Below are positions 5,443 to 7,686 of a DNA stretch of 32,000 bases, one piece after another; the stretch's first letter is position 1; every line of letters begins with the position of its first letter. Made by a program: the position numbers and the translations under genes. Source of the DNA: Alkalithermobacter thermoalcaliphilus JW-YL-7 = DSM 7308 (lineage in GTDB: Bacteria; Bacillota; Clostridia; Peptostreptococcales; Peptostreptococcaceae); NCBI RefSeq assembly GCF_001584565.1, contig NZ_LSFY01000001.1:1650421-1682420 (forward strand), given 5' to 3'. Below the pieces are notes generated by a model. That model was not told the origin of the DNA. It saw only the letters and a program-made list of their open reading frames with translations, and made no database searches.

Positions 5443-6441
5443 TTATTTTAATACATATATTTTGAGTGTTCTTCTTCCGAACCTCCGTGCTTTTTCTAAA
5501 CTTTCCATATATATATCTATTTTATTTCCTTTTACAGCTCCACCTGTATCTTCTGCTCTATATATACCCATAGACTCTATATAAACTGTCGATCCTAAAG
5601 GTATAACTTTCGGGTCTACTGCAATAACTCCTGGTCTTACCCTAGTTCCTAAACTGGTTATTCCATATTGAGGATGAGAAGGAGTTTTTCCAGTACACTG
5701 ATACCCTGCTGTATATGCAGTAGCAGTTACAGTCATTGATTTTGTAAAAGTTCTTCTTTCCCCTCTTGATGTTATTATAAAGTTTTTAGATCCCTTTTTT
5801 ATTATTTCATTTTTAGGCTCTTTTACAACTGTTTCTGAGACTAATATTCTATTTACTTCCTTCCCATCTTCCTCTATTACTTTGTATGCTAGTTCTTTTT
5901 TTCCAACTGATCCTTTTTGAACATTTATTACTTTTCCTATTTCTAAATTGTCATCATATACAGTATTTACTACAAATGGTATTTCCTTAGTTTCTTTAAC
6001 TATTCTTTCTGTAACCCTTACTATTTTTACCTCATCACCAGGCTGTAATTTGTGATCTAAAGAAGGAAAGATTTTGTCTATCTCAGAAAAATAAATATTG
6101 TTTTGTTTTAACAAATCCTCAACTGTTTGTTCTATAGTGGTTATAACTTTCTCTTCCCCATCAGATACTAACTTCACATCGAAGGCCCTTTTTATTACTA
6201 TTTCCATGCCGTCTTTCAACTTAGTGTCTATATCTGGGAGGACTTTATCATCTTTTTGTATACTTATATTGTTTTCTTTTAAAACATCTTCTACTGTCTT
6301 TGAAAATGTGCTTACAGCTATTACTTCATCTTGAACACGTATTTTTACATTTTTATTTAAAGCTTGGTATATACCTGTTGTACATAGTATAAAAAATGCT
6401 ATCGTTGTAAGTATATAAATATATTTTTTACTTCGGCTCAT
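5443..6441 (-). CDS. yabE: YabE-like cell-wall protein (signal anchor, DUF348 repeats, G5 domain, C-terminal 3D / RlpA-like domain)
   Basis: 332 aa with an N-terminal TM segment and repeated (V/I)xV..DG motif modules. The C-terminal VTATAYT...GITSLGTRVRPGVIAVDPKVIPLGSTVYIE...YRAEDTGGAVKGNKIDIY is the 3D-domain signature. Synteny matches tatD - yabE - rnmV - ksgA. Confidence 0.85.
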   Translation of the reverse strand: MSRSKKYIYILTTIAFFILCTTGIYQALNKNVKIRVQDEVIAVSTFSKTVEDVLKENNISIQKDDKVLPDIDTKLKDGMEIVIKRAFDVKLVSDGEEKVITTIEQTVEDLLKQNNIYFSEIDKIFPSLDHKLQPGDEVKIVRVTERIVKETKEIPFVVNTVYDDNLEIGKVINVQKGSVGKKELAYKVIEEDGKEVNRILVSETVVKEPKNEIIKKGSKNFIITSRGERRTFTKSMTVTATAYTAGYQCTGKTPSHPQYGITSLGTRVRPGVIAVDPKVIPLGSTVYIESMGIYRAEDTGGAVKGNKIDIYMESLEKARRFGRRTLKIYVLK

Positions 6442-6499
6442 AAAGATCCCGTTACAGAAAACTTAAAAAACTTTTAAAAGTTTATGTTTCCTTCCTTGT

Positions 6500-6700
6500 T
6501 CATCGTGTCTAGTTTCGAAAAATCTACTCCTGTTTATTTGACACTCCGAAGGCTTAAATTCCCGACTAACGAATCGGTACATATCAATAATAGCTTTAGG
6601 TGCTATGCTATTGATTTACCATAATTTTTTAGGTTTATACTTGCATTTAAGTCTCTATCTATCTCATAGCCACATTCATCACATATAAATGTTCTTTCTG
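6500..6700 (-). ncRNA. Putative TnpB omega-RNA (reRNA) scaffold / IS right end; boundaries approximate
   Basis: TnpB guide RNAs are known to start inside the 3' end of tnpB and run through the right end. The 100 nt after the tnpB stop is locally GC-richer and has stem-loops, for example CCGAUU-CGUU-AGUCGG at about 6564-6579. No alignment is possible here, so this is an inference. Confidence 0.3.
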
Positions 6701-7650
6701 ATAAAGAAAATTTGTTTTTTAAAGCACCACATATGCTACAAGTTTTAGATGAAGGATAGAATGTATCTGCAAGTATAAATTTAATATCATTTAAGGCACA
6801 TTTATATTCCATTTGTCTTTTAAATTCGTAAAATAGCTGCTCTTGTATTGATTTTGATAATCTTTTATTTTTCAGCATTCCACAAGTATTTAAGTTTTCC
6901 ATAACTACATACTCTGGCTTGGCTTTCACCAAAGATGCAGTTATCTGATGAATATAATTATGCCTTATGTTTTTAAGCCTTCTTCTCATTTTTAAAACAA
7001 GGAATTCTAACTTTTTTATATTGTTAGTTTTTCTGTAACGGTATTCACCTCCGTTCATTTGAATTTTGTTTAATTCATATTTTTTAGATAGCTTTTTTTG
7101 TAATCGTTTTTGTCTTTTCTCAAGTTTTTTAACTTTACTTGTTTTATTTATGTTTTTGTACTTTTGTCCTGTACTTATTGTATCTTGATAAAAGCTTGGC
7201 TTACTTTTTTTCTTTGATTTAAACTTAGGAAAGTTTGCTCTGCCTTCAAAGAAGTTTTTATATGCAATACAGGCATCTTTTATAGCTTGTTTTGTTATAT
7301 TATTTGAATAGTCATTAAGCCATGAGTATTCTTTTGTCTTTTTTAGTTCAGTTAATCTTTTTCTAAGTTCACAATCACTTAAAAACTTACTACAATTTTT
7401 ATAATTTTCTTGCTCTGTTGCTAACGCAAAGTTATATGCCCATCTTGCAACTGAAGCACACTCAAATAATTTTGTTCTTTGTTTGTTATTAGGCAAAAGC
7501 ATAACTTTATAAGTTTTAATCATTGGAATTATCACATCCTAATGAATTCAAATCTGTAAAATAATTATAGATATTTATATAATTTTATAAATATAATTTA
7601 ACTGTTAATGTCCTCCTTTTTACGGAAAAAGACTCTCCCTATTTGAAGCC
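6520..7650 (-). mobile_element. IS200/IS605-family (IS1341-like, tnpB-only) element remnant; ends not determinable from a single copy
   Basis: A solo tnpB without tnpA lies in the otherwise conserved tatD-yabE intergenic region. It is flanked by GC-richer structured segments at 6530-6600 and 7610-7660, both containing a GAAG(G/C)CTT motif. Confidence 0.35.
6603..7523 (-). CDS. tnpB: TnpB-like RNA-guided nuclease homologue, internally deleted (lacks RuvC-I segment)
   Basis: N-terminus MIKTYKVMLLPNNKQ...ARWAYNFAL is the OrfB_IS605 N-terminal helix region. VVMENL (RuvC-II Glu), the zinc finger CSICG...CDECG and IDRDLNASINL (RuvC-III Asp) are all present. It is 306 aa from the ATG at 7521-7523, versus about 370-410 aa for typical TnpB. 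The track's GTG start at 7535 has no usable SD spacing. Confidence 0.85.
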   Translation of the reverse strand: MIKTYKVMLLPNNKQRTKLFECASVARWAYNFALATEQENYKNCSKFLSDCELRKRLTELKKTKEYSWLNDYSNNITKQAIKDACIAYKNFFEGRANFPKFKSKKKSKPSFYQDTISTGQKYKNINKTSKVKKLEKRQKRLQKKLSKKYELNKIQMNGGEYRYRKTNNIKKLEFLVLKMRRRLKNIRHNYIHQITASLVKAKPEYVVMENLNTCGMLKNKRLSKSIQEQLFYEFKRQMEYKCALNDIKFILADTFYPSSKTCSICGALKNKFSLSERTFICDECGYEIDRDLNASINLKNYGKSIA

Positions 7651-7657
7651 TTCATCC

Positions 7658-7686
7658 ATTCTAAACTATTTTTGAATCATTGTCAA
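7658..7686 (-). promoter_or_regulatory. Near-consensus sigma-A promoter reading toward tnpB and the yabE operon
   Basis: Minus strand reads TTGACA (7681-7686), a 17-nt spacer, then TAGAAT (7658-7663). Confidence 0.5.

Follow-up and report, generated by a model that had tools for sequence, protein, structure and literature searches.

The subject of this analysis is a stretch of 32,000 nucleotides (hereafter the window) from Alkalithermobacter thermoalcaliphilus JW-YL-7, whose genome comprises 1.93 Mb at 30.2% G+C, and within it an insertion sequence (IS) of the IS607 family that carries a shortened gene for the RNA-guided nuclease TnpB. The tnpB open reading frame (ORF) occupies positions 6603-7523 of the minus strand and stays open for 306 codons plus stop. 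It is followed by a guide-RNA scaffold, and the element as a whole separates a yabE-like host gene from its Shine-Dalgarno (SD) sequence. Pfam recognizes HTH_OrfB_IS605 at residues 1-43 (E 4.5e-13) and Cas12f1-like_TNB at residues 231-298 (E 2.8e-22) but gives no match to PF01385 (OrfB_IS605/RuvC) in the 306-amino-acid (aa) ORF, although a full-length paralog does match this family. An earlier note, made from the letters of this DNA, had described a solo tnpB from which an internal deletion, in frame, has taken the RuvC-I aspartate while sparing the other motifs. All of the motifs it listed are found in the window ORF: the intact N-terminus, the RuvC-II Glu (VVMENL), the CxxC...CxxC zinc finger with all four Zn cysteines, and the RuvC-III Asp (IDRDLNA). 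The RuvC D-E-D triad is incomplete; the block GIGIDLGV, which holds D195, is gone, and the E and the last D are present.

Two 394-aa TnpB paralogs (P0002 and P0003) are encoded in the same genome. Both match PF01385; downstream of the deletion junction they share ~96% identity with the window ORF, and upstream of it ~89-90%. Their 88 extra residues fall exactly at ...FYQDT|ISTGQKY, and a nucleotide alignment of all genomic copies shows the window ORF to be shorter by exactly 264 nt, or 88 codons, equivalent to full-length residues 116-203. The missing block includes GIGIDLGVKDLA, which contains the RuvC-I motif GIGIDLGV. The proposed in-frame deletion is borne out by this alignment: its size had been put at 80-90 aa and is 88, and its junction, placed at about nt 7165-7185, maps between 7179 and 7178. 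A second assembly of the strain, GCA_900142555.1 (99.95% identical), has the identical junction at the identical locus, so the junction is not an assembly artefact. In a search of 5.8 billion proteins, the sole 306-aa cluster among the matches listed consists of this genome and its second assembly, and the other close relatives among the matches listed are 377-399 aa long and contain PF01385, with the exception of one 333-aa protein.

The closest solved structure is that of the ISFba1 TnpB (8iaz), with which the full-length paralog aligns from end to end (residues 1-388, E 5.6e-69); the catalytic D194 of 8iaz aligns to D195 of the full-length protein. This alignment was used to map lost and kept residues onto the contacts published for ISFba1. 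In ISFba1 numbering, the deleted block includes N121 and N122, which read the target-adjacent motif (TAM), the residues R130, H131, R132, R142 and Y148 that anchor stem-loop 3 (SL3) of the guide RNA (right-end RNA, reRNA), and S160, which helps to seed the heteroduplex. The deletion takes the whole second segment of the TAM-interacting domain (TID, WED-like) together with RuvC strand beta1, and leaves REC1 with K80/K83, REC2, RuvC-II and RuvC-III and the zinc-finger RNA-binding domain (RBD). AlphaFold2 models of both forms, built with the same 40-sequence alignment, have a mean pLDDT of 70.7 for the deleted form versus 79.6 for the full-length control and a pTM of 0.49 in both cases. The deleted model drops below 50 at residues 1-20, 105-120 (around the junction) and 213-228. 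A strand at 2-10, barrel strands at 110-179 and RuvC beta1 at 192-196 are predicted in the full-length model, and the barrel strands are missing from the deleted one. The comparison is in soft agreement with the loss of a whole domain and of the central strand of the RNase H fold. Judged by its sequence, the 306-aa protein would be incapable of cutting, and by analogy with ISFba1 it is very probably unable to read a TAM or to hold the guide RNA properly; given the loss of the TID, retained RNA-guided DNA binding seems unlikely.

The window element is one of a family. BLASTN of the region against its own genome detects 13 loci, of which only two have a full-length tnpB: c1455k, which also has tnpA, and c1477k, which has only a 24-codon tnpA remnant. 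The 264-nt deletion is present in the other 11. Five of these have the open 306-aa frame, two are frameshifted, one (on contig 3) has a further 3' deletion, and three (c680k, c718k and c1171k; L010, L011 and L009, respectively) have undergone a second in-frame deletion of 123 nt that leaves 265-aa ORFs. This second deletion removes 41 codons in REC1 and is bounded by the short direct repeat GCTATAAAA. An intact 200-aa tnpA product with MerR-HTH and Resolvase domains is encoded by two copies, c165k and c1455k, and this serine-recombinase TnpA makes the family IS607-type rather than IS200/IS605. The left end (LE) and right end (RE) are common to all copies. Each element begins directly after GG and ends ...TTTCTGTAACGG; the RE tip reads ...TTCTGTAACGG, and GG stands at both junctions.

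These copies change how the locus is to be read. The description of the gene as solo holds insofar as the window copy has no tnpA, but the gene sits in a complete IS607 element (LE, RE and reRNA scaffold) with two tnpA-intact relatives in the genome. Likewise, the deleted form is multi-copy and not peculiar to this locus. A recently decayed IS copy was the closer of the two options offered earlier, yet with the deletion in 11 of 13 copies the element looks like an amplified non-autonomous derivative and not a single decaying copy. As for orthologous deleted copies in relatives, the corresponding site of the same-genus genome G001 is empty, and outside this genome the 306-aa form was seen in the same-strain assembly only. 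The family as a whole is absent from G001, the sole same-genus genome searched, and the best match among the 40 relatives searched is 66% identical. A 336-aa TnpB homolog in genome G035 (L032:1186-2196, minus strand) has an independent in-frame deletion of ~55-60 residues in the TID/WED barrel and retains the RuvC-I GIDVG motif and an adjacent RAGATH-18.

The two copies with intact tnpA have surroundings of their own. The copy c1455k (L013; G000:C1:1454113-about 1456160, minus strand) has, besides its tnpA, the reRNA and a 394-aa tnpB whose D-E-D triad is whole; it is apparently complete and potentially autonomous, and sits 5 nt upstream of sucD. The copy c165k (L002:492-2600), with intact tnpA and deleted tnpB, lies within an apparent arsenic-resistance operon, between a 105-aa ORF that is ArsR-like by eye only and an SBF/ACR3-type transporter gene.

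How the deletion arose and spread can be read in part from its edges. An imperfect direct repeat, TATGTAGATACA / GATTTAGCTACA, stands on either side of the deleted block where that block is still present, in the full-length copies. The junction has two variants of equal length, YQDT|IS in seven copies including that of the window and Y|LATIS in four. Repeats and variants together bear the signature of slippage or microhomology deletion. The deletion of tnpA is also bounded by repeats similar to those at the tnpB deletions. The class-1 junction keeps Gln113, which is the consensus in outside homologs and is lacking in both resident full-length copies, so the founder of the deletion was a different element. 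At 87 informative sites all copies are block-wise mosaics of one another, including deleted copies with the full-length c1477k. Five of the six possible combinations of deletion state and tnpA state are seen, and in the window copy a tnpB body typical of the family (94-96% identical) lies between foreign ends, a diverged LE and the short form of the RE. Taken together, the mosaicism, the combinations and the mixed make-up of the window copy indicate frequent gene conversion among copies. Transposition of IS607 requires only TnpA and the two ends, and a deleted element could therefore still move in trans by means of the two tnpA-bearing copies. Gene conversion and mobilization in trans would together account for the presence of the deletion in 11 of 13 copies.

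The features of the window element are collected in the table below. Its boundaries are fixed by the uninterrupted orthologous site of G001, which reads AAAAGGAGG|GATCTAGTATG downstream of TTGACA-17-TAGAAT, the host promoter being conserved there. The window LE is ~75-80% like the LEs of other copies and runs directly into the tnpB ATG, at the place where other copies have the tnpA ATG. The layout of the scaffold agrees with ISFba1, whose reRNA begins just past the stop codon, and RAGATH-18 is also present in other genomic copies and in homologous elements of other genera. Minimum free energy folding of the reRNA region gives an uninformative z-score of 0.42. The putative guide flank spans the host spacer and start codon.

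Table. Features of the IS607-family element and its surroundings in the window
Feature	Position	Strand	Basis or remark
Whole IS607-family element, 1163 bp	6449..7611	(-)	Alignment of 13 genomic copies and empty site in G001
Element span			ACATTAACAGTT... to ...TTTCTGTAACGG; GG core dinucleotide at both junctions
Deleted tnpB ORF	6603..7523	(-)	Keeps REC helices, RuvC-II Glu, Zn finger/TNB, RuvC-III Asp
Deletion junction	7176..7181	(-)	Codons T115/I116, between 7179 and 7178; alignment to full-length paralogs
Junction-spanning peptide of the 306-aa protein			...SFYQDTISTGQK...
LE, 88 nt	7524..7611	(-)	Diverged variant of the family LE
Promoter-like TTTATA-16-TATAAT in LE	7591..7564	(-)	Promoter scan, predicted
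Guide-RNA (reRNA/omega RNA) scaffold region, 154 nt	6449..6602	(-)	tnpB stop to RE tip; kept in all copies
RAGATH-18 motif (RF03064)	6492..6552	(-)	Rfam 61.8 bits against a gathering score of 44.9, E 2.2e-11
20-nt putative guide/target flank	6429..6448	(-)	Directly past RE tip; position as in ISFba1
Orphaned host SD AGGAGG	7612..7617	(-)	TAM AGGAG plus GG crossover; cut off from its gene by the insertion
Host promoter TTGACA-17-TAGAAT of yabE-like gene	7658..7686	(-)	11/12 consensus positions; now faces the element
yabE-like host gene (DUF348/G5/3D-domain)	5443..6441	(-)	ATG 7 nt past RE tip

The window RE is 22 nt shorter than that of the other copies. Decay of the guide RNA was considered as the reason and rejected, since elements in four other genera share the short RE (~41-43 nt after RAGATH-18). 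Two length variants of the RE can be distinguished after this motif: one of ~43 nt in the window (6449-6491) and in the elements of the four other genera, and one of ~65 nt in the other 12 copies (e.g., L003:2533-2597) that has an extra palindromic unit. The long variant also contains a putative outward promoter, TTGATA-17-TATAAG, read by eye from the sequences. The diverged LE and the shorter RE mark out the window copy as a separate sub-lineage within its family of copies.

All 13 elements are wedged exactly between an SD-like (A/G)G(A/G)GG, equivalent to the AGGAG TAM, and a host start codon. The motif stands to the left of the LE in 12 of the 12 copies whose LE can be defined, and in all 13 a same-strand host start codon follows 5-10 nt past the RE tip. 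Pfam confirmed the identity of the downstream genes, which encode an RlmB-like methylase, GlmM, an SBF/ACR3-type transporter, a PfkB kinase, an M16 peptidase, CoaBC, NusB, FtsY, a DUF2344 protein, SucD, an SNF transporter, the YabE-like protein and MurI. Among them, glmM, coaBC, nusB, ftsY and murI are widely essential in bacteria. By a crude test the SD-like fraction is only ~40% for AGGAGG and 23% for RGRGG sites in the genome, so 13 of 13 exceeds what motif frequency alone would give; the excess is likely caused by the purging of insertions inside genes. The regularity itself follows from the known TAM: RAGATH-18 is the core of the reRNA of a clade of IS607 TnpBs (~390 aa on average) whose TAM is 5'-AGGAG or GAGGG (PMC11061315). 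GG is the crossover dinucleotide for IS607-type TnpA. The same SD-to-ATG arrangement is found in four of seven homologous RAGATH-18 elements examined in other genera, and insertion at this point may be general for the clade. In L025, L027, L029 and L032, all from other genera, a start codon lies 5-11 nt after ...(C/T)(A/G)ACGG; that of L029 belongs to a probable chorismate synthase gene, identified by eye. No discussion of SD targeting was found in the literature searched.

A scan found no terminator-like site inside the window element, and yabE is presumably transcribed through it; its translation may start from residual GG-G-GAUC complementarity at the junction. A group I intron, as in IStrons, was considered as the reason why the insertion is tolerated and was rejected, as Rfam at E <= 1 gives no intron signal in the window copy or in four other copies.

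Each 16-nt guide has a single perfect match in the genome, its own flank, and the sequence in front of that flank is GTAACGG (the RE tip) instead of AGGAG; the search of the genome for second targets returned only chance-level matches with 1-3 mismatches. The 16-nt flank of the window (6433-6448) has ~14 genomic matches with three mismatches, all preceded by AAGGACA, which suggests that it resembles the start of some other multi-copy sequence.

Comparison with described systems places the element more closely. It shares much with the ISFba1-type IS607 TnpB (Ren et al., 2024, Cell Res, PMC11061315; PDB 8iaz): end-to-end homology of the full-length paralog, RAGATH-18 located just past the tnpB stop and up to the RE, AGGAG(G) at the LE, the GG core, and a serine-recombinase TnpA partner within the family (c165k and c1455k). 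It differs in that the window copy and 10 others are without the 88 residues that comprise the second TID segment and D195, and in that the window copy has no tnpA and has its diverged LE fused to the tnpB start. By descent the window TnpB belongs with the TnpBs of the IS607 family, but it is without two features on which their function depends, a complete RuvC triad and a whole TID.

The earlier note also entertained a nuclease-dead guided repressor of the TldR type. TldRs have at least two triad residues mutated and/or the C-terminal ZnF/RuvC lost, keep RNA-guided DNA binding, occur outside transposon context, are tied to a specific non-transposon gene and have guides directed against a promoter (Wiegand et al., bioRxiv 10.1101/2023.11.30.569447). 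The window protein resembles them in its kinship to TnpB, in its damaged RuvC site and in the guide-RNA scaffold next to its gene. In contrast to them, it has lost RuvC-I only, plus the TAM- and RNA-binding TID, and keeps the ZnF and the E and D residues; the deleted gene is still within IS ends in 11 copies; the 13 copies stand at 13 different host genes with no conserved gene partner, and the 306-aa form was seen only in this strain; and the window guide finds no perfect match but its own flank, where a TAM is missing. The triad and ZnF losses, the exaptation and the distinct TAM-adjacent target that characterize TldRs thus appear to be missing here, and the idea of a guided repressor is weakened.

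Most non-autonomous IS derivatives have lost nearly all of their coding sequence. The window copy is like such derivatives (MITE/PATE-like; miniature inverted-repeat and palindrome-associated transposable elements) in keeping both ends without a transposase of its own, in having two intact 200-aa tnpA genes elsewhere in the genome and in sharing one deletion with 10 other loci, and unlike them in retaining a 306-aa in-frame nuclease remnant and a complete guide-RNA scaffold. With IStrons (Zedaveinyte et al., bioRxiv 10.1101/2023.11.20.567912) it has in common an IS607-type TnpA/TnpB, a transcribed host target and a GG motif that equals the TAM, and host tolerance of the insertion is equally in question. 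However, there is no group I intron signal (window and four other copies) and the LE measures only ~90-190 nt, so tolerance is not attributable to splicing.

In our judgment the window element probably derives from a known IS607/RAGATH-18 element by an internal deletion and belongs to a non-autonomous form that has been amplified; its TnpB would no longer cut and would probably no longer bind DNA under guidance. Slippage between short direct repeats would have removed the 88 codons, and loss of the second WED-like segment and of RuvC beta1 with the catalytic Asp would have abolished cutting. Elements so disabled could have been moved by TnpA supplied in trans, and the deletion could also have been copied from element to element by gene conversion until it was present in 11 of 13 copies. 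The window copy would have inserted at the GG of the AGGAGG SD ahead of the yabE-like gene, and may now be transcribed from the promoter of that gene as well as from its own LE promoter.

A different view is that the RuvC-I/TID-less TnpB is a selected nuclease-dead product whose spread to 11 of 13 copies reflects an advantage to the element or the host. It might hold reRNA by way of REC2, RuvC and the zinc finger and antagonize cleavage by the two full-length TnpBs, or modulate TnpA or the host transcript that carries the element. Several observations favor such a product over a mere remnant. Pairwise dN/dS (nonsynonymous to synonymous substitution rates, Nei-Gojobori) among the deleted copies is 0.08-0.39 at dS 0.05-0.29, and the nine open deleted copies have 17 nonsynonymous to 20 synonymous singletons where neutrality on the empirical spectrum would give ~2.6:1 (P = 7e-4). 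Of 90 positions that do not vary among 33 full-length homologs, the deleted copies show only 1-2 changes, one of which also occurs in a full-length copy. Neither of the internal tnpB deletions (264 and 123 nt) shifts the frame, the window copy keeps the catalytic E and D and the four Zn cysteines, and its reRNA scaffold is intact, with RAGATH-18 at 61.8 bits. The retained domains (REC2, RuvC and RBD) hold 10 of the reRNA contacts listed for ISFba1 and with them most of those to the backbone, and some RNA binding might survive; the 336-aa homolog in another genus, moreover, has its own in-frame TID deletion in an open frame.

Each of these points is confounded. The low pairwise dN/dS would in itself be a strong argument for function, but was discounted as proof, because the copies are mosaics that share haplotype blocks with a full-length copy and the low values are not creditable to selection on the short form; by the informative sites, the differences among deleted copies may have accumulated in full-length ancestors and so predate the deletion. 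The two frameshifted copies show the same singleton ratio (7:7), and the ratio weakens to 11:9, no longer significant by a hand estimate (P roughly 0.08), on leaving out the two divergent-end copies, whose singletons are probably derived from haplotypes since lost. At 0-10 singletons per copy (mean ~4) and an expected nonsense fraction of ~6%, the nine open frames among 11 deleted copies are what recent origin alone predicts. Furthermore, the residues that read the TAM and anchor SL3 are lost together with the RNase H-like beta1, AlphaFold2 confidence is lower at the N-terminal strand and the junction, and there is neither conservation outside this strain nor a second guide target. As far as sequence comparison reaches, low dN/dS and the singleton ratio leave selection on the short form neither shown nor excluded, and overall a selected product is unlikely, though not to be dismissed lightly. 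A more particular form of the idea, in which the 306-aa remnant is a selected, cleavage-dead and TAM-blind protein that holds the RAGATH-18 guide RNA and acts as antagonist or regulator in an SD-to-start-codon IS607 family, is doubtful; such a protein might, for example, damp cutting by the two full-length nucleases or free a host start codon occluded by an active TnpB-guide complex. Alternatively, the frame could be kept open on behalf of the host, as a premature stop in a 0.9-kb untranslated leader might cause polarity on the downstream gene. This would suit the position of all 13 copies 5-10 nt upstream of a same-strand start, five of the genes being widely essential, the host promoter that reads into the window copy, the lack of a terminator-like site inside it and the in-frame internal deletions. 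It is improbable all the same: the deficit of missense changes is left unexplained, frameshifted copies survive at two loci, one of which precedes ftsY, and the putative outward promoter TTGATA-17-TATAAG in the RE of most copies (by eye) would, if real, make read-through unnecessary. The distribution of the deletion could also stem from a recurrent hotspot, with many independent slippage events between ATnTAGnTACA repeats in full-length copies that had already inserted. The direct repeats at the block, the two junction variants of identical length, the short repeats that likewise bound the tnpA deletion and the second tnpB deletion, and the five of six combinations of deletion and tnpA state can all be cited for it; yet 11 independent identical events next to two unaffected copies would demand a very high rate, Gln113 at the class-1 junction points to a different, already-deleted founder, and the visible mosaicism by gene conversion explains the combinations, so we give this origin little credence. 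Finally, a naturally short TnpB clade with its RuvC-I aspartate elsewhere, the outcome that the earlier note had set against its own deletion claim, is next to inconceivable: paralogs ~96% and ~89-90% identical on the two sides contain the 88 residues, PF01385 goes undetected in the 306-aa form, and the close relatives among the matches listed are, bar the 333-aa protein, of 377-399 aa with that domain.

On the favored reading, that of an amplified non-autonomous derivative, the case shows the gene of an RNA-guided nuclease decaying inside a living transposon family, in which the active gene has given way, in 11 of 13 copies, to a form with one in-frame, domain-sized deletion. It further cautions against taking low dN/dS among paralogous IS copies as evidence of domestication when the copies recombine. 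The insertion between SD and ATG raises the question of how glmM, coaBC, nusB, ftsY, murI and the other genes are still translated without an SD, which is directly testable. Were the short protein functional after all, it would represent a second kind of nuclease-dead TnpB, architecturally unlike TldR, and a new route of decay.

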